Below the pieces are notes generated by a model. It was given only the letters and a program-made list of their open reading frames with translations, did not search any database and was not told the origin of the DNA. This document shows positions 951 to 32,132 of a DNA stretch of 32,458 nucleotides, piece by piece. Position 1 is the first letter of the stretch, and each line of letters begins with the position of its first letter. Both the position numbers and the translations under genes were made by a program. This DNA is from Bacteroidota bacterium (GTDB lineage: Bacteria > Bacteroidota > Ignavibacteria > UBA10030 > SZUA-254): positions 1 to 32,458 of the forward strand of contig SCUC01000328.1 of NCBI GenBank assembly GCA_004322375.1, given 5' to 3'.

Positions 951-985
951 ACACACCCCTTATTCCCCTCTCCAGAGGGGAATTA
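951..985 (+). repeat. REP-like palindromic element, copy A (host flank): ACACACCCCTTATTCCCCTCT-CC-AGAGGGGAATTA.
   Basis: Same motif and same orientation as 14404-14437, 16848-16901 and 22402-22434. Confidence 0.85.
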
Positions 986-7390: not shown

Positions 7391-7927
7391 TTGAACGACT
7401 TTCAGAAATATATTGACAACCCCAAACCCATGCTGGACCCGGAGAACGATTTTCCGGTCAAGAACGACACTACGGTTCTTGACTGGCTCCGGGTCTGGTG
7501 GGGCGCGGCGTTCCGGTATAGCTATGGCATCGAGAGAGTCGTCTGCTCCCTAGGGAAGCAGTACGGGTGGGATGAGGTGTTCGAGGTGATCAAGCTCGCA
7601 GCGACGAACGGGAAGTTCAGCGTACGGTACGTGGAAGTGAGTTGCGAGAAGAGGGCGAAACAACGAAAGGAAAAATCGGAAGCGCAGACGCGGAAAATAG
7701 TTCACTGCCCAAAGTGCTATGAAGGATACTGGAGCGACAGGCGGCATGAATGCGCGGTTACTGTATTTGATTCCGCCGGAGGCGGATCTCCGCTTCGCTC
7801 CGACATGGCTACGGACTGTAGGGAGGAAAGCCAGGAGGAGGTGCATGAGCAGGTGATGAAGATAAAAGCCGCTTGGAGCGAGCCTCGTCAAGGACGGGAG
7901 GAATGGAACAATGAAAGCAAAGCGTAA
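7391..7927 (+). CDS. Hypothetical protein, possibly DnaD-like, with a C-x2-C...H-x-C motif.
   Basis: 178 aa with a TTG start in the track (ATG alternative near 7430). Contains VIKLAATNGKFSVRYVEVSCEKR and CPKCYEGYW. Confidence 0.45.
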   Translation: MNDFQKYIDNPKPMLDPENDFPVKNDTTVLDWLRVWWGAAFRYSYGIERVVCSLGKQYGWDEVFEVIKLAATNGKFSVRYVEVSCEKRAKQRKEKSEAQTRKIVHCPKCYEGYWSDRRHECAVTVFDSAGGGSPLRSDMATDCREESQEEVHEQVMKIKAAWSEPRQGREEWNNESKA

Positions 7928-8871: not shown

Positions 8872-9095
8872 TGATCTGCCCAAAATGCAAGCGCGACTTA
8901 ACCGACGTGCCGCGGGAAAAGCTTCCCGGATACGTCTATGAAACGGACGACTCGTTCGGTTTGCCGTTCATCCGCAGAGGTCGCGCTTGCACGAATTGCG
9001 GTTTTATTTTTGAAACGGAAGAAACGGCAACCGGCGAGCCGTACCACAAACGGGGTCCAAGGGAATTGCCGGGACAAACAAGGATGGAACTATGA
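8871..9095 (+). CDS. Four-cysteine zinc-ribbon protein.
   Basis: 74 aa containing CPKC...CTNC. The start overlaps the upstream stop. Confidence 0.55.
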   Translation: MICPKCKRDLTDVPREKLPGYVYETDDSFGLPFIRRGRACTNCGFIFETEETATGEPYHKRGPRELPGQTRMEL

Positions 9096-9170
9096 TTAAA
9101 CTGATTGAATGAGAACCCGTCCCGCACTGGCGGGACGAGGCTCGACAAAGTCGGCTATGATTGAAAGTAA

Positions 9171-11711: not shown

Positions 11712-11757
11712 AAATCCCGTCCGTGGTGATAAACATTCATACGGGCGGGATTTTTTT
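11712..11757 (+). terminator. Rho-independent terminator at the convergence point of the cassette and the minus-strand late block.
   Basis: Stem AAATCCCGTCCGT (11712-11724) / ACGGGCGGGATTT (11741-11753, one G-U pair) followed by a T7 run. Confidence 0.7.
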
Positions 11758-12349
11758 ATGATAAGACTTTTAACAAATTTTTCGAGATAGTTTCCCCGGC
11801 GAGCTTGGTGAGGCGCTCCCGCTCTTCTTTTGATAAATCGAAAAAAACATGCTTGCGACGAGATTTCCCTGCCCCCTCGATGTTGTGATAGCGGGCGATG
11901 CGTTCAGCGTCCGTGTCGGGGAATCCTACATCGGCGCCCGAGTCGTCTTTCCTGATTAAACCCAGGTTCCGCATCAGCCTGCCCGTCCAGCTCATCACCA
12001 CATGATCGCTGAACTTGCCCGCGAGCTTGCGAAACTCTTTATATCCTCCCTGCACGATGATCCACGTGTTGCCGCTCTTAGCGGTAAACAGAACATACTT
12101 GTCTTTATTTTGCGCCTGCTCTTTTGTGAGCTTCGCTTTTACATTTGCCTGGAACTTCGCGAACGGGAGCGGGAGCGGCGTGACGGAGTACTGCTCGGCG
12201 CCGGGGCTTGAGCCTTCGAGATACTTGCCGTCGAGCGTCCGTTTACGGATGATGGCAATAACTCCGGAAGAGAGACGGAGCAATACCACTTCGTCAATAA
12301 TTTTGTTGGGAAGGTTGTCGAGCTTCCGTTCAAGTTCTTCGGTTGTCAT
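11756..12349 (-). CDS. Virion morphogenesis protein, Mu gpG-like (tentative).
   Basis: 197 aa directly downstream of the portal gene. Segments SWTGRLMRNL and YHNIEGAGKSRRKHVFFDLSKEE resemble the gpG/tail-completion family. Confidence 0.5.
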   Translation of the reverse strand: MTTEELERKLDNLPNKIIDEVVLLRLSSGVIAIIRKRTLDGKYLEGSSPGAEQYSVTPLPLPFAKFQANVKAKLTKEQAQNKDKYVLFTAKSGNTWIIVQGGYKEFRKLAGKFSDHVVMSWTGRLMRNLGLIRKDDSGADVGFPDTDAERIARYHNIEGAGKSRRKHVFFDLSKEERERLTKLAGETISKNLLKVLS

Positions 12350-12394
12350 AACCCTTCCTTATTCCTTCCCTTGTTAAGGGAAGCAGAATTCAAT

Positions 12395-13594
12395 TTATTC
12401 GAGGATTTCATCTGTCTCGGCGGGAGGGGTGAAACCGGTTTTCCGGTAAGCTTCGTCTTTCCGGATTTTCATCCCGGCGTCTTTCATGTTCAGGATTACC
12501 CGGCTGTTTGTCTCGGTGTCCCCGATCTCGTCCACGTTGAAGCGGAGGACGTAGGGGCATAGTTCCGCTGTGGAATAATTTTGAGCGAAGTCTTGCGCAA
12601 GGTACTGGTCGGTGATGATCTCCTGTACGAGCATGATGTCGCCATAGAGATAATCCTCCCGGACGAAATTTCCGGCGAGAGCTTTTGCGTAGTTGCTCCC
12701 GACCTTGGAATCCGTCGTCATCGCCTGTCCGAGGATGCTGATGCTTTGTTTGTCTTCGATAAGCGCGACAAACTGTTTGTGCATTTCAACAATGCCGGAG
12801 CGCTGTGCCTCGAGAAGGTTCAGCTTCACGTCGTCCGAGAATGCGGCGCGGGAACTCGAAGAGAGAGCGTCAAGCCCGTCAACGATTGTCTGAATCTCGT
12901 CGGGGTCAGCCCCCTTGATGTACTGCGCGTACAAGAGCGGGTCGCCGAACTTTTTGTTCGCCATGGACCACTGGAACATGTCGTCGTACTTGAGCCAGGC
13001 GTAAATCATATTGATGCGCGCAAAAGAACCGGTGAAGTTCTCGTCAACGCCGTCGAGCGGGTTGGCGCGTATGATGATGTGCGTCGCCGGGTCGAGAGGC
13101 TTGGAGGTGAACGCCTGCGACTTCGTATCTGTATCAATGAAGAGCAAGCCATTAAGCGACTTCGTATCAATGTCGAGCTCGGTGAGGTTATACTTTTGAA
13201 CGGAAGCAACGCGCGTTCCGAGCAACGAATCGTTTTGCCAGACAAGACGAACCGCCCCCTGCCCGAAGATATACGCGTTGACAATGTTGCCGAAAAGCTT
13301 GCTGATGCCGGACTTGACCATCCTTGACCGTATTTGCTCGATGCGTTTCTTGTCTGCGTCTTTTGCCGTCAAGCCTTCGAGCATGTCAATGCGCCGCTGG
13401 AACCCTGTAAGAGCGAGCTTGCGGGTTTGGAGCAGCCCCATAAAGTGTGGGTCAATCTGACCGATTTGCATCAGCCAGGACATGAGCGGGCGCACATCGC
13501 GGGTTGCATCGGTTGCGTTCGCGGATTGCACGTATTTGGCAAGCCGCGTGAGTTCGGGGGTAAGCTTGGTTGCGAGGTCGGAGTTGATGTACAT
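12395..13594 (-). CDS. Portal protein (Mu gp29/DUF935-like).
   Basis: 399 aa immediately downstream of the large terminase. The call rests on size, position and an acidic C-terminus, not on a verified motif. Confidence 0.7.
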   Translation of the reverse strand: MYINSDLATKLTPELTRLAKYVQSANATDATRDVRPLMSWLMQIGQIDPHFMGLLQTRKLALTGFQRRIDMLEGLTAKDADKKRIEQIRSRMVKSGISKLFGNIVNAYIFGQGAVRLVWQNDSLLGTRVASVQKYNLTELDIDTKSLNGLLFIDTDTKSQAFTSKPLDPATHIIIRANPLDGVDENFTGSFARINMIYAWLKYDDMFQWSMANKKFGDPLLYAQYIKGADPDEIQTIVDGLDALSSSSRAAFSDDVKLNLLEAQRSGIVEMHKQFVALIEDKQSISILGQAMTTDSKVGSNYAKALAGNFVREDYLYGDIMLVQEIITDQYLAQDFAQNYSTAELCPYVLRFNVDEIGDTETNSRVILNMKDAGMKIRKDEAYRKTGFTPPAETDEILE

Positions 13595-13597
13595 AAT

Positions 13598-13643
13598 CAG
13601 TAGCCAGTATGTTAGTAGTCAGTATGTCAGTATGTCAGTGATT
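13598..13643. repeat. 8-mer microrepeat filling the TerL-portal junction: CAGTATGT at 13605, 13620 and 13628, with variants at 13598, 13613 and 13636.
   Basis: Read directly. In the gene (minus) sense it reads ACATACTG, so TGA recurs every 8 nt. Confidence 0.8.
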
Positions 13644-15363
13644 AGAGTCTTCCAGTGACGGAGCGTTTTGAGAGAGAGAGAATTTTTTTGTCGCTTTTGC
13701 CGCGCGGGGATGGCTTGAATATTTCATGGAGCATCTCGAACGCGCTGATGAGCGAGTCGGGAGCGTCATCCTGCTTGTTTGCTTTCTTCCCGCGAAACGA
13801 AAACAATTGATCGGTGTAGAGCTTGCCGTGAACGAGGTCGCGAAATTTAGGCGGAAAAAAAAGCGTCCCGTTTTGGTAAGCGGTCTGAGCGCCCTTTGTG
13901 ATGTCGTCCACGCGGTAACGCTTGTAATGAATGGGCGGCACGGGGTGATTGTGAAGTAGCGCGAAGTTGCGAACATGGTTTGTCCAGGTTGATTCGTTCG
14001 CAACGTTCCCATCAAAGCCAAGATGCCTGCCGCTCACGAGATCGGATGTAAGCCCGCGCATGACGAGAATATCCATGAGGAGCTTGTCGCTGTCGCTGTA
14101 TGATTGGCAAATTGCGTTCACGATATAATAATTCATCGTTGAGGGAGACCATGCGAGGCAGGTCGCTGCGGTGGTATCCCCCTTCCCTTTCAGAGCGCAA
14201 TTCGGGTCGGTGAAGATGACGCCTTTCAGATCCCTGGGGAGCATTTCCCATTCCCGGTAATATGTGTCGGGGAAAATGTCGCCGGACTTAACTGTCGGCT
14301 TCCCTTGGAAGTTGCCATTCCAATCATACTGGTCTTTCGGTTTGCACAGAGATTTGAGCTCGGATTCGGAAGAGGCGGGGTAACGCTCGGGCCATAAGCT
14401 ACCACACACCCCCTCCCCCGTCTCTAGAGGGGAATTACTCTCAGCCAGAGGCTGATCTCCGCTCCGCTCCGACCATGCGGGGAAGATATGAAGCTCGAAC
14501 TGATCGGAGAGGATGCCGTTCTCCTGCTCCCGTACCAGATGGTTCATGGCGCATCGGGCGTCGAAGTTGTTCCCTTCCCAGAGGAGCGTGCCGTCATCGG
14601 TGAGAGAGGTGCGCATCTCGTTGATCTTGTCAATACGCGCAGCGATGGAGTCGGAAGTAAACGAGCTCGTGAGGTTCTCGACATCGGTGAGGTAAATGTA
14701 ATCGAGACGGAGGATGAAGCCGCGCTGCAGTCCGCGCGTGGAACGGTCGAGCGAAATGGCAGAGATGTACGTCCCTTTCGGGTTCGCGTTTGTCTGCAAA
14801 AAGAGGGTGTCTTCGTTCGCCTGATTCCATTTCATTTCATAATCGTGGCAGAGACGCGGGTTTGTCTCGAAGAAGAGCACGATGTCGGCAAGCGAATTTG
14901 CAGCAGGCGTTAGGGTTTCGCATCCTAGCGCCATATACCGGCGCGTACCATGCAGCAAGTCGTACGCGAACTTCTTTTTCAGGGTCGCCGTTTTTGCAAA
15001 GCCGCGGGGACCGTGAACGACATGCGCCTTTTTGTCGCGCCTCTCGTTGATGCGGACGATCTCGCGGTGGAACTCGCCGATCGGGGAATAGTCGTCGTAC
15101 ATTTCAGGAGGAAAGTAGGTTATATCCCAGAACCAAAAATCAGACAACGAGGCAATGAGCCGTGAGCGTTGAGCGGCGGGTGTTGCGTCTTCGCCGGCGA
15201 AGGGAGCGACGGGCTTGAGCAGGGCGTCAAGCTCCCGTTGCTTTTGTTCGGCTTCCGCCCGTTCTGCCTGCTTCTGCAAGCGGAGAGATTCCCTCTGATT
15301 CTTCTCGGCGAGCTTTCGAAGGTTATCGAGGACTTCACGTCCTGTGGTGAATGTGCTGCTCAT
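13642..15363 (-). CDS. Terminase large subunit.
   Basis: 573 aa with a Walker A-like GPRGFAKT and a later acidic DYIYLTDVE. The C-terminal nuclease-like region contains IFTDPNCALKGKGDTTA. Gene order is TerS-like/TerL/portal. Confidence 0.88.
   Translation of the reverse strand: MSSTFTTGREVLDNLRKLAEKNQRESLRLQKQAERAEAEQKQRELDALLKPVAPFAGEDATPAAQRSRLIASLSDFWFWDITYFPPEMYDDYSPIGEFHREIVRINERRDKKAHVVHGPRGFAKTATLKKKFAYDLLHGTRRYMALGCETLTPAANSLADIVLFFETNPRLCHDYEMKWNQANEDTLFLQTNANPKGTYISAISLDRSTRGLQRGFILRLDYIYLTDVENLTSSFTSDSIAARIDKINEMRTSLTDDGTLLWEGNNFDARCAMNHLVREQENGILSDQFELHIFPAWSERSGDQPLAESNSPLETGEGVCGSLWPERYPASSESELKSLCKPKDQYDWNGNFQGKPTVKSGDIFPDTYYREWEMLPRDLKGVIFTDPNCALKGKGDTTAATCLAWSPSTMNYYIVNAICQSYSDSDKLLMDILVMRGLTSDLVSGRHLGFDGNVANESTWTNHVRNFALLHNHPVPPIHYKRYRVDDITKGAQTAYQNGTLFFPPKFRDLVHGKLYTDQLFSFRGKKANKQDDAPDSLISAFEMLHEIFKPSPRGKSDKKILSLSKRSVTGRL
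14404..14471 (+). repeat. Composite REP-like cluster lying in-frame inside the terminase gene. It comprises copy B of the ACACACCCC...AGAGGGGAATTA element (14404-14437), the hairpin TCAGCC-AGA-GGCTGA (14441-14455) and CTCCG x3.
   Basis: It has the same sequence family and the same plus-strand orientation as the intergenic copies. It encodes ..ERSGDQPLAESNSPLETGEGVCG.. on the minus strand. Confidence 0.8.
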
Positions 15364-15971
15364 TGACCTGCCTTCTCGTACCGTTCGAGCTCTTCCGAGT
15401 AAATCAGGATAACCTCCTCGTCGGAAGCGTCGGGCTTGAAGCGGCGAATGAGCTGCGCTATAATTTCAGCGTCGCCGCGTTTCAGTTTATTTTGCATTTC
15501 GCGGTTGTGAATGTCCTTCAAAATTACGGAGCAATCTTTGAGCGCTTTGACGGATTCTTCCGGAGGAAGCGTCGAGGAGTTTATCTTCTCAAGCGTTCTT
15601 AGAGTTTGGAATTTCAGGAAGTCGTCCGGGTCGCTGAATGCTGAAAGGTCTGTCGGGTTTTCGGCGTCGTCAATCGGGGCGCCGAATTTGCGCCTCTGTC
15701 CTTTGTCGCGGCGCGGGCGGTAGTTCGATTTTGAACGACCGGCAATGCAATTATAGACCTGCCAGTAGCTGAGGTTGATCTCCGCCATAATTTCTTTTAT
15801 GGTTTTTCCCTGGTTGAAAAGGGTAATCGCTTTTTTGCGGTTGGGAATTGTTGACCAGCGCTTCCCTTTTGTCCCGCCGTTGTTGTTCAATTTCACTTGC
15901 GTGGCAGAGGCTGTTTTTTTATTCTCTCCGCCAGAGGCGGATTTCACTTCGTTCAACATTCTTATTCCCAT
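15360..15971 (-). CDS. Terminase small subunit-like HTH protein.
   Basis: 203 aa with a basic N-terminus and HTH GKTIKEIMAEINLSYWQVYNCIAG. It has an ATGA-type overlap with TerL at 15360-15363. Confidence 0.55.
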   Translation of the reverse strand: MGIRMLNEVKSASGGENKKTASATQVKLNNNGGTKGKRWSTIPNRKKAITLFNQGKTIKEIMAEINLSYWQVYNCIAGRSKSNYRPRRDKGQRRKFGAPIDDAENPTDLSAFSDPDDFLKFQTLRTLEKINSSTLPPEESVKALKDCSVILKDIHNREMQNKLKRGDAEIIAQLIRRFKPDASDEEVILIYSEELERYEKAGQ

Positions 15972-16393
15972 TTATTGAGGTGAAAGCGGCAACGGATTGT
16001 GACGACGCTTTCCGCGGCGGTCTTTTTCAAAATCTGAAAAGGCTGCGAGCGCGGTTGAAGCACGAACTTCGAGCCGTCAATCGTAAAGGCTGTCTCTGTG
16101 ACGAGCTTGAATGTTTTGAACGCAATCGTCCACGCTGCTGAGGAGGATTCTTGCACAGTTTGACCCTGAGCGGAAACGATGAGCATCACAAGCTCGAAGG
16201 GAACTGCAATGGACTTTGTATGCAGGTTGCCCTGTGATTCTTCGACCGTATCAATGTACAGTCCGATGTATGGCGGCTCGAACGTAGAGGGTACCTCTTC
16301 GCCGATCTCGCCGGCGGACTCGATTCCAAGCTCGAGCTTGTTCGTGTTGAGCAGCGTGGCTACTGCTTCGGCGACTGTGTCGGGGATAATCAT
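15962..16393 (-). CDS. Hypothetical head-completion/neck protein.
   Basis: 143 aa lying between the connector-like gene and the TerS-like gene. No motif recognised. Confidence 0.4.
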   Translation of the reverse strand: MIIPDTVAEAVATLLNTNKLELGIESAGEIGEEVPSTFEPPYIGLYIDTVEESQGNLHTKSIAVPFELVMLIVSAQGQTVQESSSAAWTIAFKTFKLVTETAFTIDGSKFVLQPRSQPFQILKKTAAESVVTIRCRFHLNKWE

Positions 16394-16400
16394 TTGTCTT

Positions 16401-16440
16401 AACTATGATTAATGTGATTGAATGATGACTATGATTTATA
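16401..16440 (+). repeat. 40-bp TGATT-rich junction element, copy 1.
   Basis: AACTATGATTAATGTGATTGAATGATGACTATGATTTATA is 33/40 identical to 18741-18780 by manual alignment. Confidence 0.8.
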
Positions 16441-16822
16441 GCTTTGTGATTACCGTATCCGATTGAAACATGGGTTCGGGTTTGGCGGCGAGCTCATCAT
16501 TATCGAGCTTGAGGCTTCCCTCCTTTATTAGCGTAAGCGTTTGCATAGCGTTGTTATACATATCCTTTCTGCGGTTGTACTCGACTTCCTCGATCTTCCC
16601 CTGCTGTCCTGTCGTGAACCAGGTTACGAGAGCGCAAGCGATGTTGCGCAGGATGGGACGCGCATCTGCAGGCGTTGCCGGTACGGGGATTTGAAGCGTG
16701 AGCGCAATGATGTCGTCCACCTGAAGGATTGTTTCATCGAGCCCGTCGGGAGCTTCGGCGGCAGTGAGCCAGCTGTTTTTTTGTGCGAACGATTTGAGAA
16801 TTTCTTGATTTACAAAGCTCAT
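16436..16822 (-). CDS. Head-tail connector/adaptor-like protein (DUF1320/gp36-like or gp6-like).
   Basis: 128 aa whose overall pattern (..PVPATPADARPILRNIACALVTWF...RRKDMYNNAMQTLTLIKEGSLKL) resembles Mu gp36-type proteins. Tentative. Confidence 0.45.
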   Translation of the reverse strand: MSFVNQEILKSFAQKNSWLTAAEAPDGLDETILQVDDIIALTLQIPVPATPADARPILRNIACALVTWFTTGQQGKIEEVEYNRRKDMYNNAMQTLTLIKEGSLKLDNDELAAKPEPMFQSDTVITKL

Positions 16823-16847
16823 TTATAGACCTATAATTAATAGTTTT

Positions 16848-16901
16848 ACACACCCCTTCCCCCTCTTCCGCCAAAGGCGGATCTTCGACAGAGGGGAATT
16901 A
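16848..16901 (+). repeat. REP-like element copy C with a second hairpin (CCGCC-AAA-GGCGG, 16868-16880) nested in its loop.
   Basis: ACACACCCCTTCCCCCTCT-[TCCGCCAAAGGCGGATCTTCGAC]-AGAGGGGAATTA. Confidence 0.8.
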
Positions 16902-17047
16902 TCTACGGGATTGCAATTATTTGCAAATAATGTAACTACGAAAAGAGAAAAAAAAACCCGACAGGTACATGTCGGTATTTATAGATATACGGGCTTAGTA
17001 CATTGCAACGTGGAAATTGTATTCAAATGTTTCAAAGGATTGTTTTT

Positions 17048-17590
17048 GTGAAGGAAAAAATTTTAGCATTGCTCAAGGCGTTGAATTTGCCTGATGAAAA
17101 GTTTAACGAGGTCAAGGCGAAAATCGAGGAACTCAAACTGGATGCTCCGTCCAGCGAGCAAAAAACCACGACAGAGGTCGGAATTACGGGGGAATTAAAG
17201 ACGCTCATTGACGCGTTGCGTCAGGATAACAAGGAACTGAAGGACGCTTTAGCCGCGGAGAAAACGGAGCGGGAAAATGGAATCAAGTCTCAAAAAGAAC
17301 GCGCCGACGCCGAGGCGAAAGCGAAGCGGGAAGCGTTCGTGAAAAAGATGAAAGACGAGGGGCGCGTCGCGGAAGCTGATGTGCCTACGCTGGAGACACT
17401 TTTACAGGCAAACTTCGATGCGACGGTGAAAGCGTATGAAACGAGACCGGTATTACCAGGGTTTAAGCCGGCGGATGACGGGAAGGGAAAGAAAGGCAGT
17501 GAGCCGGGAGCGCAAGGCGGGGAACAAAACAAGCAGACGCCTGCGGAGTTGCGAGCGGCTGCGGCTGCGGCGTTCAAGCAACCAAGTTAA
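17048..17590 (+). CDS. Scaffolding-like protein (start uncertain: TTG 17003, ATG 17027 or GTG 17048).
   Basis: K/E/A-rich and coiled-coil-like, directly upstream of the capsid gene. GTG 17048 has AAAGGA 8 nt upstream. Confidence 0.55.
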   Translation: MKEKILALLKALNLPDEKFNEVKAKIEELKLDAPSSEQKTTTEVGITGELKTLIDALRQDNKELKDALAAEKTERENGIKSQKERADAEAKAKREAFVKKMKDEGRVAEADVPTLETLLQANFDATVKAYETRPVLPGFKPADDGKGKKGSEPGAQGGEQNKQTPAELRAAAAAAFKQPS

Positions 17591-18661: not shown

Positions 18662-18740
18662 TATCAATACGCGATGAAAAGTCCCGCTCTGTGGGAGTGT
18701 TGCTACCTCCTCCCATGGGGCGGGAGACTTAAAATGTCTA

Positions 18741-18780
18741 AACTGTGATTCGCATGATTGAATGATGTCTATGATTTATT
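18741..18780 (+). repeat. 40-bp TGATT-rich junction element, copy 2.
   Basis: AACTGTGATTCGCATGATTGAATGATGTCTATGATTTATT. Confidence 0.8.
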
Positions 18781-19421: not shown

Positions 19422-19528
19422 TTTGCGGGAAGGTCTGGTGACCCGGCGAGACTCATAACCTCGTCTGAGACAGGATCGTAACCTGTTCCCGCTACAAAAC
19501 TTTGATTTAATGATTGGTATGATTTACG

Positions 19529-19781: not shown

Positions 19782-20210
19782 ATGCAGAGGGAAATAGCAA
19801 AGACGATTGCGCTTGAAGGCGGTTATGTTTGTGATCCGAACGACTCCGGCGGTGAGACGAAGTTCGGGATCTCAAAGAAATCATTTCCCGATGTTGATAT
19901 AAAAAATTTAACTCCAGAAATTGCTGCGGGGTTATATAAAACATATTATTGGGACAAATTGCACCTCGACGGTTATTCGAATATACAGTTTAGGTGGAAG
20001 TTGTTTGACGTAGCCGTCAATCAAGGCGTTGGAACTGCTATGGCGTTTATTACAATCTTGAAAAATAAGGATAACCGCGAGGGTGTGTTTGAACTTGCTG
20101 AAATGCAGATGAAACGGTACATAAATTTAGTAATTTCAAAGCCGTCGTTGTTGAAGTTTTTGCGCGGATGGGGAAATAGGGCGTTTGAACTGGGGGATGA
20201 TCTGTTATGA
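19782..20210 (+). CDS. Endolysin, glycoside hydrolase family 108-type lysozyme.
   Basis: N-terminus ALEGGYVCDPNDSGGETKFGIS (EGGY...D.GG.T.fGI, the GH108 signature). ATG 19782 is preferred over GTG 19779. Confidence 0.8.
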   Translation: MQREIAKTIALEGGYVCDPNDSGGETKFGISKKSFPDVDIKNLTPEIAAGLYKTYYWDKLHLDGYSNIQFRWKLFDVAVNQGVGTAMAFITILKNKDNREGVFELAEMQMKRYINLVISKPSLLKFLRGWGNRAFELGDDLL

Positions 20211-20866
20211 AGTTCAGAACTATTGAGCCAGAGGCTCATCAGCCTTTTGCTGAGATTCGTGTGATTGTTGTGGTGACTGTGATTGTAATGGGTGTTATGT
20301 TGATCGGATGCGGGGGAACGATAACGAAAGATACGTTGATACAGGAGGTGACGGATACTGTTTATGTGCCGGGTAAATCAATAGCGATCGAGACTGCATC
20401 TGATAGTATCACTTATGATGTCGCACAGGAAGAGAGCAATGAGCCGGGAGCGATGAGTATAGAGCATAGATCTTTGAGCTATGAAGAGAAGGTAGAGAAA
20501 ATGCGTGAGGCTTCGGAGCGGGCAGCTAAACGAGCGGATTTACTACTTAAGGGCGATACCCCCTCTATTCTCCCCCTGAAGAAACAAGGAGAGACACGAT
20601 TGAAGGGGTTTACTGCTATGGTTGAGACAACGCTGCAGGGCGTACGGATACGGCTGCAATATCAGTCGCCGGCGGATTGGTGGAAAATAAGCTTCATCGA
20701 GGGCGACACGTTCGCAACCAAGAGCCGGATGGATACGAGTAAGACGACAATCATTGAGCGACCTATTCCGTATGTGCCGTTCTGGTGTTATCTGACGTTG
20801 GTTGTGATAGGCGGGTTGCTCGTTTTTATCGGATTGCCAAAATTAAAAAGTTTAGTAGGTTTGTAA
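20207..20866 (+). CDS. Unimolecular spanin candidate (N-terminal lipobox plus C-terminal TM).
   Basis: ATGA overlap with the endolysin. Signal peptide VIVMGVMLIGC (lipobox LIGC), and C-terminal helix FWCYLTLVVIGGLLVFIGL. Confidence 0.45.
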   Translation: MKFRTIEPEAHQPFAEIRVIVVVTVIVMGVMLIGCGGTITKDTLIQEVTDTVYVPGKSIAIETASDSITYDVAQEESNEPGAMSIEHRSLSYEEKVEKMREASERAAKRADLLLKGDTPSILPLKKQGETRLKGFTAMVETTLQGVRIRLQYQSPADWWKISFIEGDTFATKSRMDTSKTTIIERPIPYVPFWCYLTLVVIGGLLVFIGLPKLKSLVGL

Positions 20867-21533: not shown

Positions 21534-21565
21534 ATCACGGATTTTTTTAGCGTGAGCGATGAGCT

Positions 21566-21949
21566 ATGAGCGGTGATAAAAAGAAATATTGTATCGGCGG
21601 GATTGATTTTGTTTTGCGGGACTTGACGTTCGGGGACTTGAGACAGATTGCGCCGTTTGAACACCGCCTCCGGCGGATGATGGCAAGAACCGCAGAGAGC
21701 GCTAAGAGCGCAGAGTCGGCTATTGAGTTTACCATCGAACTTGATAACGCAGTCTATTCGAATGAAATGCTGGATTTTCTTGACGTGATTTTGGTCCCAA
21801 AAAAAATCAGCCGGGTGAAAGAATTTTTAGGGAGTTATCGCCGGGGCTTGGAAAAGATTACGGAGACGGCAATGCAGGAGGTGTTGTCGGATTTTTTTTC
21901 ACGACGGGGGAATGGGAAACAAAGCAGAGGGAGCGATACGACAGGTTAG
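21566..21949 (+). CDS. Tail assembly chaperone (gpG analogue), zero-frame product.
   Basis: 127 aa upstream of the tape measure gene. It contains a slippery T8 run near its 3' end. Confidence 0.65.
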   Translation: MSGDKKKYCIGGIDFVLRDLTFGDLRQIAPFEHRLRRMMARTAESAKSAESAIEFTIELDNAVYSNEMLDFLDVILVPKKISRVKEFLGSYRRGLEKITETAMQEVLSDFFSRRGNGKQSRGSDTTG

Positions 21950-22149
21950 CGCAGAGAGCGTCCGCCAGAGGCGGTTCTACGGCGAAAAACAAGAACGCCT
22001 CCGAGAAGCCTGAGATGGATGTGTTTACGAGGGTGTTGTTTAATCTTAGCACGGCGGGGATCGGGAGCGTGAACGAGATATTGGAGATGCCGTGGAAGGA
22101 AGTATTTGAGTACCAGTATTTGTTGGATTGCAGGTACGTATATACTTAG
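21566..22149 (+). CDS. Tail assembly chaperone frameshift product (gpGT analogue): 21566-21898 joined in the -1 frame to 21898-22149.
   Basis: The -1 frame reads FTTGEWETKQRERYDRLAQRA...NEILEMPWKEVFEYQYLLDCRYVYT* with no stop. The G/GT arrangement is conserved in long-tailed phages. Confidence 0.5.
21892..21898 (+). promoter_or_regulatory. -1 programmed frameshift slippery heptamer T TTT TTT (within the T8 run 21892-21899).
   Basis: Zero-frame codons are GAT TTT TTT TCA. The -1 frame is open for 83 codons from 21898 and contains no start codon until ATG 22014-22016, about 38 codons in, which could account for only its last 45 codons. Confidence 0.6.
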
Positions 22150-22346
22150 GAAGTATTTTCAGCCAGAGGCTGATGCGCCCGCTTTGCGAGGTTCGCTTTA
22201 GCGACCTTTGGCGCAGAATACCAGTATTTGTTGGATTGCAGGTACGTATGTACTTAGGAAGTATTTTCAGCCAGAGGCTGATGCGCCCGCTTTGCGAGGT
22301 TCGCTTTAGCGACCTTTGGCGCAGAGTACCAGTATTTGTTGGATTG
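22111..22346 (+). repeat. 108-bp tandem direct repeat, 2.2 copies (units start at 22111, 22219 and 22327).
   Basis: Copies 1 and 2 differ at 2 positions. The third copy is only the first 20 bp (TACCAGTATTTGTTGGATTG). Each unit contains the hairpins CAGCC-AGA-GGCTG and TGCGCC...GGCGCA. Confidence 0.9.
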
Positions 22347-22401: not shown

Positions 22402-22434
22402 ACACACCCCTTAATCCCCTCTCAAGAGGGGAAT
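22402..22434 (+). repeat. REP-like element copy D, overlapping the tape-measure RBS and start codon.
   Basis: ACACACCCCTTAATCCCCTCT-CA-AGAGGGGAAT, where the final AT belongs to ATG 22433. Confidence 0.8.
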
Positions 22435-24223
22435 GAATATGCCTGAACCATTAGTATTAAAGATAACGATTGATAAAGGGAACGCGATTGTTGACGTGAA
22501 ACAGGTCGCGACCGCGCTGCACGAGCTTGACGCTGCGGAACGGAAAGCGGGCGAGGGGGCGAACGGCGTGACGGATGAATATCGGACGTTCTTCCATCAG
22601 CAGAGGACGGGGGACCGGATAATGAACGAGAGCAAGCAGGCGTTGCTGGGCATATCGGGGGCGTATGTCATGTTAAATCAAAGTTTAGGGGGTAATCAGG
22701 AGAAGCAGCAAAAAGTAGCAGCGGTCTTGACTTCTTTTATTGCCACGTCGCAGGCGTCGGAGTTTGCGTTGTTCGGGCTATCGAGGGCGTTTGTTTCCGC
22801 GGGCGGAAGCGCGGCGGTGTTCGGCGCGGCAATTCAACGATCGTTAGGGTGGGTAAGCGCGCTCTTAGGCGCGGGGATGGCGCTGGCTACTTTTCTTTCG
22901 CTTACAAATGAAAAAACGGAGGAAGTAGCTCCGAATTTCGATGAGATTGCAAAATCTATTCAATCAGTGTATGAAGCGCAATTGAAGCTGAACGTGATTA
23001 AGGAGCACGAGTATCTGCGCGGGTTACAGCAGGAGATTGACCGGACAAGAATTGTTTTCCAGACTTTGCAAAACGCAATGGGGCGGGGAACGTTGGACCC
23101 GAACGTCATGACGCCGGAGGAGCGAAGGGCGTACTTAGATTGGCAGAATGCAATCCTGAAACGGAAAGAGTATGACGAAGAGAGGGATAAGAAAGCTTCT
23201 GAGACCGCGAAAAAACTTGCCGAGGAAAAAGCAAAGGAGCTGAACAATTATTTAGATTATTTAGATAAGGCGAGAGCAATGGAGGAGCAGTACGCTCTGA
23301 CGTTTGCTAAAACCGATGCGGAGCTTACCGCTATAAGGAAAGCGCAATTGCAGGCGAGAATCGCCGACGAATTGAAATTCGGCGCTCTCACGATGGAGCA
23401 GGACTTGAAGGTGCGAGAATACCGTTTGGAATTGCAGAGATTGGAGACGCAAGACGAGCGGACACAGGCGGCGGATATTACGGATTTGAAAGCCCGGCTG
23501 CGGGAGATAACGATTACGGGAATGGAGAACGAGCATGAGAAGGCGCTTGCGCTCATACGGGAGAGGTACGAAAGCGAGATGGAGCTTGCGAAGGGGAACG
23601 CCGATAAGATCGGCTTGCTTGAGAAGATGAAGAATGAAGAACTTGCGCAGGAGACGCGGCGGTTTACCCGGGAGCAGGCGGCGGCGCGGCGTCAGGAACT
23701 CCAGTGGCTGGAGAGCGGCGTTCGCTCGACATTTCAAAACATGTGGAACGCGATTATTGACAGCTCGATGACCGGGGCAGAGAAATGGAAGGATATCCTC
23801 GAAGGAATCAAGCTGACAATATGGGATATCATCGGGCAGATTATTGAGAAGATGATCGTTTCCGGGGTTGTCGGTTTTTTTATGAATTTATTGAACCCGA
23901 TGGGAGCGGCGGCGGCGGCGGGCGGGGCGACGATTGACAGCAATCCTTTCGGCGGGGGCGGGGGAGCAATGTACGGGGGGACGATGCCGGATTACCGGGA
24001 CGTGGCAGCAGTGGGCGGTGGGCAGCGGGCGGTGAGTCCGCCTGCGGCGGATCTACGCTTCGCTTCGACGAGTGATTTGACTTCGGCGGTGAATAAACTA
24101 TCGCGTAAGGTTGATAAGCTTAGCTCGACGGTGATCATATCGAACGTGGACGGGGAACGGTTTACCCGGAAGCATTTGACGACGGCTGAGGTATCACGCG
24201 ACAGACGGAGGAGGATAGGATGA
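22433..24223 (+). CDS. Tape measure protein.
   Basis: 596 aa with hydrophobic/Gly-Ala segments, a long charged coiled-coil centre and a Gly-rich C-terminal region. It follows the G/GT chaperone. Confidence 0.85.
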   Translation: MNMPEPLVLKITIDKGNAIVDVKQVATALHELDAAERKAGEGANGVTDEYRTFFHQQRTGDRIMNESKQALLGISGAYVMLNQSLGGNQEKQQKVAAVLTSFIATSQASEFALFGLSRAFVSAGGSAAVFGAAIQRSLGWVSALLGAGMALATFLSLTNEKTEEVAPNFDEIAKSIQSVYEAQLKLNVIKEHEYLRGLQQEIDRTRIVFQTLQNAMGRGTLDPNVMTPEERRAYLDWQNAILKRKEYDEERDKKASETAKKLAEEKAKELNNYLDYLDKARAMEEQYALTFAKTDAELTAIRKAQLQARIADELKFGALTMEQDLKVREYRLELQRLETQDERTQAADITDLKARLREITITGMENEHEKALALIRERYESEMELAKGNADKIGLLEKMKNEELAQETRRFTREQAAARRQELQWLESGVRSTFQNMWNAIIDSSMTGAEKWKDILEGIKLTIWDIIGQIIEKMIVSGVVGFFMNLLNPMGAAAAAGGATIDSNPFGGGGGAMYGGTMPDYRDVAAVGGGQRAVSPPAADLRFASTSDLTSAVNKLSRKVDKLSSTVIISNVDGERFTRKHLTTAEVSRDRRRRIG

Positions 24224-24257
24224 GGGATATGAGCAATGAGCGGTGAGCGGTGACATG
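24220..24257 (+). repeat. Heptamer microrepeat at a gene junction (ATGAGGG ATATGAGC AATGAGC GGTGAGC GGTGACA TG).
   Basis: Read directly. It spans the tape-measure stop (24221-24223) to ATG 24255. Confidence 0.8.
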
Positions 24258-25538
24258 TATGTGAGTGTTGACATAGACGGAACGGATTATTCTACGAGGC
24301 TGATGGCTTCGGGGAATGATAACCCTGTGGACGGGATCGAGGAGCTGCTCCTTGCGATGGAAGATGAGGACGGGGGCGGAGTAATAGGCGCTGCGACGCT
24401 GAACCTCTCGGACTTGAACGGCGAAGTAACAGGCATCTTGAATGCCGCGCAAATGGGGACGCTGAAATTGGAAGCGGGCAACCTGACGCTGTACGAAGGG
24501 ATCCTTGACCGCCCTAATTTCAATTACGATAAGCAAAACAGAATCGTCACGGTGAAATCGCTCGGATATGAAGCGAAGGTATTGAAGCAGCTTGAAGCGA
24601 TAACAATGGATACTGTGCTGAACTTCAAGGGTATCTATGTCGAGATACCGTATGCGCCGTCGGCTGCGCCGTGGAACGATTATGCCGGTCGAAGATTTAA
24701 CCAGGCAATATTTTTATTCGAGGAGATTTTCAAGTCGGCGGGCGTGACCTGCACGGTAAACGGTATTCCCGATGACGTGTACATAGGCGGGAAAGTTATC
24801 CTGAGCGTTCACGCAGGTCTGGTTGATTTCGGTCCGAAATGGTATGATCTCGAGCCGTTAGACACGTGCAAGGATTATCTCGCGGAGCTGTGCAAACTCT
24901 TTAACGCGACATGGTGGATGGAAAGCGACACGACGGCAATCGTCACGACAAAGCTTGCCGCTCTGCAGGAATCGAAGACGCTGGCGGCATACGAAGGGAA
25001 CATCATCAAGGGAGAGAAACGTTTGCGCTTAAACAATAACGGGTATGACGCCATCACCCTGACATCGGGGAATAGCGAGAGCGGACCGCAGGGGAATAAA
25101 CGGACTATATCGAGGACGGCATTGAACGCCCGGACTCTTAACGTGAGCGTAAAGTTTAAGCTCGCGGAGCTTCTCTCGAGAACGTATCTTGCGATCGCAG
25201 AGACGGAAGACAATCCTTATTACGTCATCAAGGCAACGTATGACGATACGACAGGACTCTATACAGCGGAGCGATTGACGAACAGCGTGAACGGCGAAGC
25301 GACGTACTTTCTCGACACGTTTTACAATTTTGAATTGCAGGGAACGCATGAAGCGGAAATAACCTATTCGTTGTTACAGAGCGGGACGTTGAATGCAACC
25401 TTGCTGCGGAAATATTTCCAGCTCGGGACGCTCGATTTATTTTCGGGAGATACAAGCGAGTATTTTGCCCGGGAGGTTGCGTTCGATCCGTATAACGAGA
25501 CGGCGACGGTACGGGCGGTGGGGTACGTGGGTTTATGA
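24255..25538 (+). CDS. Distal tail / tail-tip protein (candidate).
   Basis: First gene after the tape measure. ATG 24255 is preferred over the track's GTG 24243. Confidence 0.55.
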   Translation: MYVSVDIDGTDYSTRLMASGNDNPVDGIEELLLAMEDEDGGGVIGAATLNLSDLNGEVTGILNAAQMGTLKLEAGNLTLYEGILDRPNFNYDKQNRIVTVKSLGYEAKVLKQLEAITMDTVLNFKGIYVEIPYAPSAAPWNDYAGRRFNQAIFLFEEIFKSAGVTCTVNGIPDDVYIGGKVILSVHAGLVDFGPKWYDLEPLDTCKDYLAELCKLFNATWWMESDTTAIVTTKLAALQESKTLAAYEGNIIKGEKRLRLNNNGYDAITLTSGNSESGPQGNKRTISRTALNARTLNVSVKFKLAELLSRTYLAIAETEDNPYYVIKATYDDTTGLYTAERLTNSVNGEATYFLDTFYNFELQGTHEAEITYSLLQSGTLNATLLRKYFQLGTLDLFSGDTSEYFAREVAFDPYNETATVRAVGYVGL

Positions 25539-25574
25539 GCAGTGAGCAATGAGCAATGAGCGGTGAGTTGAATG
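25536..25574 (+). repeat. Five tandem heptamers (TGAGCAG TGAGCAA TGAGCAA TGAGCGG TGAGTTG) followed by AATG.
   Basis: The first TGA is the upstream stop codon. The ATG at 25572 is the next start. The repeat fills the junction exactly. Confidence 0.9.
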
Positions 25575-26102
25575 GCGTATAACGAAAATTTTTTGTGGGG
25601 TAAGCCGGAACTGAAGTTTGTCGTGTGGCACGGCGAGACAGAGAAAGGGACGTTCACGTTTGACAGCGATGCGTTTTCCGGGTTCGTTCCCGATTTTACT
25701 CCGATCGGTCTGCGGCACGTGCTGCAGGATAACACGATAGATAAGCGCTTAGACGGCTACCGGTTTACGGGGGAGGTCACGTTCGGGACAATAGCAGGGA
25801 ACGAATTAAACTCGCTTGCGAAGCTATTTACATCATTAAACGCGGGGAATAATTATTATGACAGGCTTCAATTTTACCCGAGTTATAACGATATGCCGGG
25901 CTGGTGGTTTGACGTGTATCTATCAGATGAAGTGATCACCACGGCGTTTATGGCGCTGATAGCACATCGTGATATCGAGTTACGGTTTGAAAGCAAGTCT
26001 CTCCTCGATCATGTTCCTCTGGCGGAGTCTGCGTTTTTGACGTGGGGAAACATGCAGCTGACGTTTCAGGAATTGGATATGGCGTTTAGCACATTGTCTT
26101 AG
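25572..26102 (+). CDS. Tail/baseplate protein (hypothetical).
   Basis: 176 aa within the tail-tip gene string. Confidence 0.5.
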   Translation: MAYNENFLWGKPELKFVVWHGETEKGTFTFDSDAFSGFVPDFTPIGLRHVLQDNTIDKRLDGYRFTGEVTFGTIAGNELNSLAKLFTSLNAGNNYYDRLQFYPSYNDMPGWWFDVYLSDEVITTAFMALIAHRDIELRFESKSLLDHVPLAESAFLTWGNMQLTFQELDMAFSTLS

Positions 26103-26141
26103 ACTCTGATTCGCGTGATTTAATGATGACTTTGATTTTTT
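26102..26141 (+). repeat. 40-bp TGATT-rich junction element, copy 3.
   Basis: GACTCTGATTCGCGTGATTTAATGATGACTTTGATTTTTT is 33/40 identical to 18741-18780 by manual alignment. Confidence 0.75.
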
Positions 26142-30021: not shown

Positions 30022-30035
30022 ATATTGAAATCCTC

Positions 30036-31250: not shown

Positions 31251-32132
31251 CTAGAGAGGATCCCATTCCCTAAAAAATCGTAATATATTTTTCCCATTGG
31301 TGTCTAGATTTATCTTATAGTTTGTTCTAATTTTATCCATATCGGGTTCAGACAATCCATACGCTGTTCCTTTAATGTCACTGCATTGTTTTGTATTAAG
31401 AGTGAATTCCAATTTTTTCAGGTTTGTATAATGATAGCCAAAACCAAGGAAACGAATTCGCTCAGCTTTTTGTAAAAGCGAATGTGCCTTAGCTAGCAAA
31501 CTTACATCTGCTTCTTCATCTATCAGTTTTAGATTTCGGCTCATCCCAAATATGACTTCTGTATCACTTGTAGGCTCATATGGAAAATGCCCACTGTGGA
31601 TTGGAAGTAATCCTAGGCTTCCATGGATATGAATTATTGGAATATTCTGAATAGCTCTTTTTTTTACATTGTCCGTTAATCCATAAAATCCTTCGGAAGC
31701 CATAGATAGATAATGTTCTAGTGATCTGTCATAATTAAAAGTTATAATAGAATTGGTCCCTCCTTCTAGATCCATAGAAGACATACCTTTTAGATGCTCA
31801 AATAAATAACCATACCAATTTTCAGGATTATTTCTATCATACAATTTGTGTTCAATTTCATAGTAAGTCAGTGCATGTGCTATAGCCAGTTTTCCTATCT
31901 CTAAAAATTCTTCTTTTCTTTGGATTAACAAATCATCAATAGCATCCGTAACAGAATTCACAACCGCATCTCTAAAGTTATCAATTTCTTTTTCTAAGAA
32001 TCCCCAGCTACTAAAATGTGATTTTTTACTCTTGAGAACACCGACAATGTCCCCAACCAATTTATGCCCTGAAGGAAATCCATACGGCATACTTGCCCCC
32101 GCTCCTAATATGAAAACAGTTCTCTTTGTCAT
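31251..32132 (-). CDS. Stand-alone SIR2-like (SIR2_2-type) protein.
   Basis: 293 aa with FILGAGASMPYGFPSG at the N-terminus, then ITFNYD and IHIHGS motifs. A strong SD GAGGAGG precedes it. It is visibly AT-rich compared with the adjacent gcvP. Confidence 0.75.
   Translation of the reverse strand: MTKRTVFILGAGASMPYGFPSGHKLVGDIVGVLKSKKSHFSSWGFLEKEIDNFRDAVVNSVTDAIDDLLIQRKEEFLEIGKLAIAHALTYYEIEHKLYDRNNPENWYGYLFEHLKGMSSMDLEGGTNSIITFNYDRSLEHYLSMASEGFYGLTDNVKKRAIQNIPIIHIHGSLGLLPIHSGHFPYEPTSDTEVIFGMSRNLKLIDEEADVSLLAKAHSLLQKAERIRFLGFGYHYTNLKKLEFTLNTKQCSDIKGTAYGLSEPDMDKIRTNYKINLDTNGKNILRFFREWDPL

Follow-up and report, generated by a model that had tools for sequence, protein, structure and literature searches.

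Does a segment of an essential phage gene consist of an acquired repeat, and if so, what does this mean for the phage and for the repeat? The question is raised by SCUC01000328.1, one entire metagenomic contig of 32,458 nt from a groundwater metagenome, assigned to a bacterium of the Ignavibacteria (Bacteroidota). We analysed the whole of this stretch, hereafter called the window. It contains a Mu-like prophage, and the gene for the large terminase subunit (TerL) of this prophage carries two hairpin repeats at 14404-14473 on the plus strand, unit A followed by unit B, in antisense to TerL. The first-pass annotation had compared the segment with the palindromic elements of Rickettsia, and had asked whether the prophage is still functional and whether repeats of the host colonise it. 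We find a real in-frame insertion that resembles those of Rickettsia. In brief, it is the solo end of a cross-phylum hairpin family associated with DUF559 nuclease genes, and this family has settled repeatedly in terminase linkers. The best explanation of the whole is that 14404-14473 is selfish repeat DNA tolerated in an essential phage gene, and we have good confidence in it. The coordinates are collected in Table 1.

Table 1. Features of the window that bear on the repeat segment in the TerL gene (ORF, open reading frame)
Feature	Position	Strand	Evidence or remarks
Mu-like prophage	1033-30021		27-nt terminal inverted repeats; MuA and MuB; Portal_Mu; gp36
TerL ORF, 573 aa	13642-15363	-	phrog_38 (E-value 8.5e-38); 33 homologues; AlphaFold2 model; Foldseek
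25-residue loop, codons S298-S322	14398-14472	-	all repeat DNA; alignments, pLDDT
Unit A in TerL	14404-14438	+	tag 14404-14412; arms CCCGTCT 14417-14423 and AGAGGGG 14426-14432; then AATTAC
Unit B in TerL	14441-14473	+	TCAGCC-AGA-GGCTGA hairpin 14441-14455; CTCCG-rich tail TCTCCGCTCCGCTCCGAC
Unit A, left flank	951-985	+	z-score -6.05; heptamer-like repeats next, then B hairpin 1017-1031
Unit A with nested B (16867-16889) in its loop	16848-16901	+	gap between divergent gp36-like and protease/scaffold genes
Unit A	22402-22434	+	3' end overlaps first ATG (22433) of a 596-aa ORF
Unit B, full tail	7772-7804	+	within ORF 7391-7927, frame open
Unit B, full tail	24037-24069	+	within ORF 22433-24223, frame open
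B hairpin	15927-15941	+	variable N-terminal extension or 5' leader of TerS-like ORF 15360-15971 (minus strand)

Unit A begins with a tag, ACACACCCC, which is followed by a hairpin (CCCGTCT/AGAGGGG in the TerL copy) and by AAT, extended to AATTAC in TerL. The tag is found four times in the window, always on the plus strand (at 951, 14404, 16848 and 22402; 0.04 expected), in agreement with the four plus-strand copies of a 34-nt element reported by the first-pass annotation. Three matches to the core CCCCTCT-N2-AGAGGGG were found (965, 14417 with one mismatch, and 22416; 0.01 expected), and in the 16848 copy the loop is interrupted by a nested TCCGCC-AAA-GGCGGA-TCTTCGAC unit. The core of unit B, TCAGCC-AGA-GGCTGA, is present in 10 exact copies against 0 expected. 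The complete 33-nt unit with its tail is found again at 7772 and 24037 with 88% identity, and the B hairpin at 1017-1031 abuts the left end of the prophage (1033). That the TerL element is an in-frame composite with a CAGCC-AGA-GGCTG hairpin was correctly annotated; its unit A starts at 14404 rather than at 14397. The CCCCTCT hairpin attributed to it is also there, with one stem mismatch (CCCGTCT) and a poorer fold: this hairpin is the weakest of the four A copies (z-score -1.8, against -6.0, -4.4 and -2.1). The plus strand carries all four A copies and each B whose tail can be recognised, although transcription of the gp36-TerL-portal block is from the minus strand.

A 108-bp tandem repeat at 22108-22346 (2.2 copies, 98% identical) carries one TCAGCC-AGA-GGCTGA hairpin per unit and lies directly upstream of the 22402 copy and the 596-aa ORF. 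A triplex reading of the A tag was considered and rejected, as a parallel pyrimidine third strand would require the opposite polarity. Rfam searches, with the window at the gathering threshold and with four full-composite loci in E-value mode, gave spurious miRNA-like hairpin matches only. A full-text search of a limited library found no paper with the sequence of the element.

Read on the minus strand, A and B give W297-SERSGDQPLAESNSPLETGEGVCGS-L323, free of stop codons, and the ORF contains AWSERSGDQPLAESNSPLETGEGVCGSLW. In an alignment of 22 TerLs this segment is a loop bounded by the conserved motifs PAW and (S)xWxxR(Y/F)PA. The loop has 25 residues here, against 7-10 in 14 of the 22 (for example DEKRPKERRS; the basal length in most homologues is 8-10), and 8-13 in further relatives from the IMG/VR database; the insert thus amounts to 15-17 residues beyond the homologues. 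We did not find the same peptide in any homologous terminase. According to the first-pass annotation such a peptide would mark the segment as native coding sequence, so the reading as an acquired repeat stands. An alternative is that the loop is native, fast-evolving coding sequence that resembles the repeats by chance or through convergent low-complexity composition, and the loop does vary in length in three TerLs with no obvious repeat (P0005, P0014 and P0017). This is highly improbable: each component has an expectation of at most 0.04, shuffle controls contradict it, the units of 35 nt and 33 nt correspond to intergenic copies, and their order tag-arm-loop-arm is that of hundreds of copies elsewhere. 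The chance that the segment is an assembly artefact, a repeat-induced chimera of two TerL halves, is close to nil. Other contigs of the study do share short repeats with this one. Both TerL flanks are nevertheless collinear and in frame with 33 homologues, and a second (Logan) assembly of the source run matches positions 13000-17200 with 0 differences, hence the insert is not a product of assembly.

An AlphaFold2 model of TerL was built from 22 homologues (mean predicted local distance difference test score, pLDDT, 83). Structure searches with Foldseek gave the TerLs of PhiV-1, T4 (gp17) and Sf6 (gp2) as top matches. A tblastn search with TerL for relatives in cultured phages gave no match among 50,697 phage records. 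Residues 301-318 of the loop have a pLDDT below 50, the only such stretch in a confident model, and are predicted to be disordered. The loop is placed between two short strands, at the tip of a beta-hairpin, after strand 289-293 and before helices 333-352, which lead into the nuclease domain from about residue 379. The domains were assigned from the secondary structure of the model and the positions of the motifs (Walker A, G118-T125; invariant acidic residues D227/E229 and D386), and on this basis the beta-hairpin tip is predicted to follow the last core strand of the ATPase domain. The alignment and the mapping onto a structure that the first-pass annotation had suggested show a long loop, modelled as a disordered surface segment.

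The alignment of the 22 TerLs has 75 invariant columns, and the window TerL retains every one of them. With an open frame and a loop predicted to be disordered at a hairpin tip, TerL most likely still works. Nothing points to a defunct prophage. Its 27-nt terminal inverted repeats (TGTAACGTGCC... and ...GGCACGTTACA, starting with TG and ending with CA) are 96% complementary, and the ORFs of MuA, MuB, portal and TerL are all open. Together with the intact invariant columns, this gives no indication of decay in the enzyme or in the prophage.

The same loop is occupied in related phages. The three closest homologues (L001, L002 and L003), 63-66% identical outside the loop, have loops of 26-33 residues at exactly the same codon position, made of hairpin modules of C-tracts and G-tracts that are antisense to TerL and arranged differently in each phage. 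In brief, the loop DNA of L001 is GTACCCCTCCCAT-CCCTCCCCTT-ggtgag-AAGGGGAGGG, that of L002 is a degraded A enclosing a B-like CCCGCAAGCGGGATCTTCGAC, comparable to the window copy at 16848, and that of L003 is CCGCAGGC-gtaaa-GCCTGCGG followed by AGAGGGGAATAC. A fourth related TerL (P0006, locus L164) is 73-79% identical to eight TerLs with the basal 10-residue loop, and has the loop peptide DEKR-IPPSSAGKSAKAKGARGMY-KS. Its loop DNA, ACATCCCCCTTG-CCCCCTTC-[24 nt]-GAAGGGGG-AATG, is again antisense, and its A unit belongs to another subfamily, with a ACATCCCCC tag and CCCCCTTC/GAAGGGGG arms (CCCCCTT type). An insert of another subfamily, in a TerL with insert-free close relatives, is an independent gain. 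With differing arrangements and subfamilies in four related phages, this one TerL loop has therefore gained repeats independently at least twice. A target preference at this site is conceivable, given that the conserved CCATGCGGGGAA adjoining it resembles the G-arm. Separately, the basal 10-residue loop of L124 (DPSRKG..) contains a perfect CCTTCC-A-GGAAGG pyrimidine/purine palindrome in GATCCTTCCAGGAAGGGA, which may be left over from an earlier hairpin unit or may be due to chance.

The repeats of these phages are not confined to the TerL loop. In L001, a copy of A occupies the gap that separates the gp36-like gene from the protease gene, equivalent to the window copy at 16848, and B units lie in frame in the TerS-like gene of L001, to which they contribute 11 residues that four homologues do not have. 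As related repeats are found both in the TerL loop and in this gap of related phages, they are carried along with the phage lineage, and acquisition after lysogeny does not simply account for them.

An alternative is that the repeats are functional cis-elements of the phage, maintained at this site by selection and not parasitic, such as antisense promoters or terminators, RNA-processing or translation hairpins, or replication or packaging signals. Position and orientation in TerL are constant in five related phages. Intergenic copies of the window, like those of many viral contigs, lie directly upstream of genes in sense orientation, one of them overlapping a start codon, and the plus orientation is uniform regardless of gene direction. 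Against this, the five phages differ in subfamily and arrangement, most relatives have no repeat at the site, and none of the four copies has a more degraded hairpin than the one in TerL. Unit A is also present in many phyla, in either orientation and within unrelated genes, and it has neither an Rfam family nor a terminator-type T-run. We regard a cis-element as unlikely, and selfish repeat DNA remains the reading that we prefer.

To place unit A in a wider context, we scanned one genome per species for CCCCTCT-N2-6-AGAGGGGAAT, which gave at least 120 stretches with 146 A copies. Among the matches listed, most share the upstream tag (...aACACACCCCTaa-CCCCTCT-CAAG-AGGGGAAT), and the hosts are Bacteroidota, Ignavibacteria, Planctomycetota, Nitrospirae, Patescibacteria, Verrucomicrobia and others. 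The family plan is a C-rich tag, 2-5 nt, a pyrimidine arm of at least 7 nt, a loop of 2-6 nt, a complementary purine arm and AAT, with a tag that goes with the arm subfamily. The window copies at 951, 16848 and 22402 fit this plan exactly, and the 14404 copy fits it with one arm mismatch. The window subfamily, ACACACCCC with CCCCTCT, is also that of L167, L169, L172, L176 and L183. A long form of A has a variable, covarying hairpin between tag and arm, ACACCCCG-[hairpin]-CCA-CCCCTCT. The full A pattern was found in 26 IMG/VR stretches, with 2-4 copies in several phage contigs. Judged from these sequences, unit A is a cross-phylum family with near-identical copies and not a host-specific repeat. 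It follows that the first-pass idea of a host repeat simply colonising a resident prophage is not supported in that form, since unit A crosses phyla and related phages already carry repeats in the same loop. Unit B, found on other contigs of the same study, seems to be local to the groundwater community.

Unit A is read in frame in other phage genes as well. Within IMG/VR phage ORFs we found it in a terminase with a Terminase_6C domain (L148), in the C-terminal tail of a Mu-type transposase (L139), in a 753-aa ORF with no Pfam match that we read from its sequence as a portal-MuF fusion (L144), and twice in an ORF of more than 2,200 aa (L140). In the bacterial genomes, 16 of the 146 A copies lie within ORFs that extend for 60 codons or more to either side, and some of these ORFs are plausible genes. 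The L148 terminase belongs to a large family that includes NCBI-named prophage terminases from metagenome-assembled genomes of Ignavibacteria and Melioribacteraceae. In this family the stretch from HLFYELF(E/K)R to WxSFNFSSYDNP has between 0 and about 50 extra residues. Among members with 90-92% identity the number of NTPL..PSQEGN units, each of them A in the sense frame, varies from one to three, and their DNA differs by 33-nt A-derived units upstream of one complete A. An unrelated TerL family thus carries the same kind of repeat in the C-terminal region of its ATPase, expanded by in-frame duplication.

Clustering of the ORFs near the 146 A copies gave one specific recurrent neighbour, a protein of 115-170 aa at 6 of 120 loci selected for unit A. 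The A copies flank the gene at those six loci, and all five of the six proteins that were scanned against Pfam are DUF559 (PF04480; E-values down to 3e-30). The other conserved neighbours belong to generic families only (ABC ATPases, sugar transferases), and no Y1 transposase recurs near the 146 copies. The association was tested on 80 metagenome loci, chosen solely for encoding a relative of the A-adjacent proteins, by counting hairpins with a pyrimidine/purine stem of at least 7 bp within 250 nt of the DUF559 gene. At least one such hairpin is present at 73 of the 80 loci. Close to the gene there are 4.05 hairpins per kb, compared with 0.10 per kb in the remaining flanks, a 40-fold enrichment.

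Typically, the hairpins bracket the DUF559 gene as a matched pair. The upstream end reads ATT-CCCCTCT-tg-AGAGGGG-nn-GGGGTGTGT and the downstream end ACACACCCCT-nn-CCCCTCT-ca-AGAGGGG-AAT, so that the two ends are inverted copies with complementary loops and tags. The subfamily is identical at both ends in 24 of 28 scorable loci and differs between loci (CCCCTCC/GGAGGGG with ACCCACCCC, CCCCCTT/AAGGGGG with ACATCCCCC, CCCTCCC/GGGAGGG, and TCTCCTCC/GGAGGAGA). It should be noted that the arms were selected for pairing, and that the non-circular evidence is the enrichment by distance and the matching of the two ends. End pairs with no gene between them are found in the upstream region of L019 and at several Mucilaginibacter loci. 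The four A copies of the window are solo units that resemble downstream ends and belong to the ACACACCCC/CCCCTCT subfamily; the L164 insert falls into the ACATCCCCC/CCCCCTT subfamily.

Two further observations concern the arrangement of these loci. At about 2400-5600 of L094, units of about 244 bp are repeated in tandem, each of them with an A copy, and a DUF559 gene is embedded in this array. At L167, L176, L173 and other loci the downstream end starts about 7-50 nt from the end of the DUF559 protein match. It thus seems to adjoin the gene or to overlap its 3' terminus, and TAA within the tag ACACACCCCTAA may be the stop codon at some loci.

A further alternative is that the TerL segment is the scar of a larger invader that has been lost except for one end, for example a whole DUF559 cassette that functioned as a homing endonuclease gene, on its own or within an intron. 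Terminase genes are well-known targets of homing endonuclease genes as well as of introns and inteins, the ends of DUF559 cassettes consist of A units, and the loop consists of element DNA only, with no ancestral residues. A cassette of about 500 nt would, on the other hand, destroy TerL unless it was spliced. We found no intron or intein features in the segment, which has only 75 nt, no Rfam match and a low-complexity peptide; inteins exceed 130 aa and self-splicing introns 200 nt. No relative has a DUF559 gene in or beside TerL, and solo A copies are common elsewhere. A scar is thus very unlikely, and we return to the solo unit that is tolerated as it stands.

We propose the following sequence of events. 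A host-encoded DUF559 nuclease would act on the hairpin ends and spread solo or paired ends in trans, probably via a single-stranded DNA hairpin. The single-strand intermediate is favoured because all prophage copies share one strand; in polarity, the window insert agrees with the TerL inserts of the four related phages. In TerL, A followed by B forms a loop of 25 residues in place of an ancestral one of about 9. Selection would remove intragenic copies except for those that are in frame in tolerant linkers, and if only such copies survive, the TerL loop becomes a recurrent landing site. The data show the identity of the repeats, the additional length of the loop compared with homologues, its repeated and independent occupation and the bracketing of DUF559 genes, whereas the mobilising enzyme, the single-strand mechanism and the retained activity of TerL are parts of this scheme that we infer.

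Several points weigh against this explanation. We did not find an empty-site allele, the closest TerL homologue being 65% identical, nor a variant TerL contig in the source or sister runs, where contigs and not reads were searched. The composite does not split an ancestral loop; it occupies the entire loop and leaves no ancestral residues, which implies either that it was not a simple insertion or that the old residues were lost afterwards. Together with the degraded hairpin, this whole-loop replacement indicates that the copy is probably old and no longer mobile, and the A copy in TerL may be an immobile relic. No target-site duplication is discernible at the four A copies. Unit B with its tail has no exact match in IMG/VR, and its relation to A is unclear. 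The window has neither a DUF559 ORF nor a transposase for these repeats. The DUF559 query was built from proteins already beside A, which confines the association to that DUF559 subfamily; it need not extend to the whole of PF04480. The bracketing does not in itself prove that the nuclease moves the repeats.

The wider possibility is that A hairpins and DUF559 form an undescribed mobile system, phage-borne across phyla and comparable to REPIN-RAYT, with a Vsr-like PD-(D/E)XK nuclease taking the place of a HUH or DDE enzyme. Its solo ends would insert in frame, time and again, into permissive linkers of essential phage proteins, terminase loops being hot spots, and would seed disordered segments there that grow by tandem duplication. 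We offer this tentatively, and rather doubt it at present. In a limited library, DUF559 is mentioned in papers but in no title or abstract, none of the titles listed deals with repeats or mobility, and nothing was found in the literature on repetitive extragenic palindromic (REP) elements, REP-associated tyrosine transposases (RAYTs) or Vsr-like nucleases that links them. To judge from this library, the DUF559 link is not known to have been described.

It is useful to compare the repeats with known systems. Rickettsia palindromic elements (RPEs) were reportedly described by Ogata et al. in 2000. Like RPEs, the present repeats are palindromes that lie in frame in genes, including essential ones, and are translated as tolerated extra surface segments, and members of the family are also intergenic. 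RPEs are about 100-150 bp long and limited to Rickettsia, whereas the present units have 33-35 nt and an unrelated sequence and are found across phyla and in phages. Unlike RPEs, units of the A and B type recur at the same loop in related TerLs, and A is also found in unrelated terminases. The resemblance seen by the first-pass annotation is therefore one of behaviour, an acquired repeat read in frame at a permissive site; in sequence family and size the element is not an RPE. RPE-4 and RPE-6 have been classed as CGTC-type REPs (PMC3733652).

The present repeats resemble REPs in being short imperfect palindromes with an unpaired tag, found solo or as inverted pairs and occasionally within genes, and in having inverted copies that flank an associated nuclease gene. 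With four copies of A and 10 of the B core in 32 kb, they are also palindromes of the short (20-40 nt), many-copy kind. The tag of REPs is GTAG or CGTC (PMC3733652), and that of A is the C-tract ACACACCCC and its variants; a CGTC-hairpin-CCA is found inside some long-form A units elsewhere and is absent from the window copies. Work on REPs and on REPINs describes repeats that flank RAYT genes (PMC3116915, PMC3337134, PMC3733652). Such genes are present in single copy and of the Y1/HUH type, whereas the gene flanked here encodes a DUF559 nuclease of the PD-(D/E)XK (Vsr-like) type. REPIN-RAYT systems are described as passed on mostly by vertical inheritance, in contrast to the near-identical A units in many phyla and phages. 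Nor is unit A a miniature inverted-repeat transposable element, a non-autonomous DDE transposon which has terminal inverted repeats and a target-site duplication, as a solo A is one hairpin with a 5' tag.

Insertion sequences of the IS200/IS605 type have subterminal hairpins and a Y1 transposase, use single-stranded DNA at replication forks and insert with a strand bias. The present repeats share with them hairpins rather than simple terminal inverted repeats, a same-strand bias and the lack of an obvious target duplication. IS200/IS605 elements and palindrome-associated transposable elements (PATEs) are hairpin elements that transpose by way of single-stranded DNA (PMC6006769). No TnpA-Y1 gene was found near any copy of the present repeats, for which transposition of a single strand would be the analogous route. 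Very small dispersed repeats of filamentous cyanobacteria, attributed to Elhai et al. 2008, are said to be nesting hairpins of 20-30 nt, associated with heptamers and in part in frame; the families and hosts differ from those described here, and we know of no reported link of these repeats to DUF559. Inteins, introns and homing genes of terminases are likewise selfish DNA in an essential phage gene; the 75 nt considered here are not spliced but translated.

The prophage itself is of the Mu type. MuA has DDE_2 and Mu-transpos_C domains, MuB is an AAA+ protein, and Portal_Mu, a gp36-like protein and an endolysin are also encoded. The genes for the gp36-like protein, a 143-aa protein, the TerS-like protein, TerL, portal and a 197-aa protein form a minus-strand block at 11756-16822. 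The block is divergent from the protease-capsid-tail genes, a layout common to L001, L003 and L164, and has a positive GC skew throughout. The prophage ends lack a 5-bp target duplication (CGGAC on the left, 1028-1032; ATATT on the right, 30022-30026), and the flanks differ in GC content (46% against 35-41%). The flanks may derive from different insertion sites, brought together by a rearrangement or by the merging of transposition copies into a consensus.

A TGATT-rich repeat of about 45 nt (TGTCTTAACTATGATT..TGATTGAATGATGACTATGATTTAT) occurs at 9088-9112, 16395-16439, 18735-18779, 19503-19525 and 26096-26140. Its copies are 71-92% identical and, where checked, lie directly upstream of a gene start, which makes the repeat a candidate phage promoter, operator or translation signal. 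Heptamer-like runs (TGAGCAA/TGAGCGG) are found at 20431-20458, 21553-21584, 24228-24261 and 25541-25574. Three of the four are at plus-strand gene junctions and overlap stop and start codons, and the 20431 run is inside ORF 20207-20866. In the left flank (1-867), inverted repeats of 115 nt at 1-115 and 753-867, 95% complementary, enclose a minus-strand ORF (326-670, 114 aa, with a C-terminal CxxC...CxxC) and four copies of TACCTCGCGGACATTT (195-325), together perhaps an invertible or mobile unit. On the other side, the minus-strand gene at 31251-32132 has weak matches to AbiH and SIR2_2 and a best database hit at 54%, and is likely an anti-phage defence gene adjoining the prophage.

The inserts have practical consequences. 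They alter the TerL lengths and alignments that are used in phage classification, and they give rise to spurious 'NTPL..PSQEGN' and 'SPLERG..GV' peptides in annotations. For DUF559 (PF04480), a large family with no known role, the association offers a testable function for a part of the family, that of a nuclease tied to hairpins, comparable to RAYT and REP. Tiny selfish repeats can ride in essential phage genes, and the TerL loop is an insertion-tolerant site of the packaging motor. The TerLs of Ignavibacteria phages that differ by 33-nt repeat-derived units illustrate one route by which new disordered protein linkers arise.

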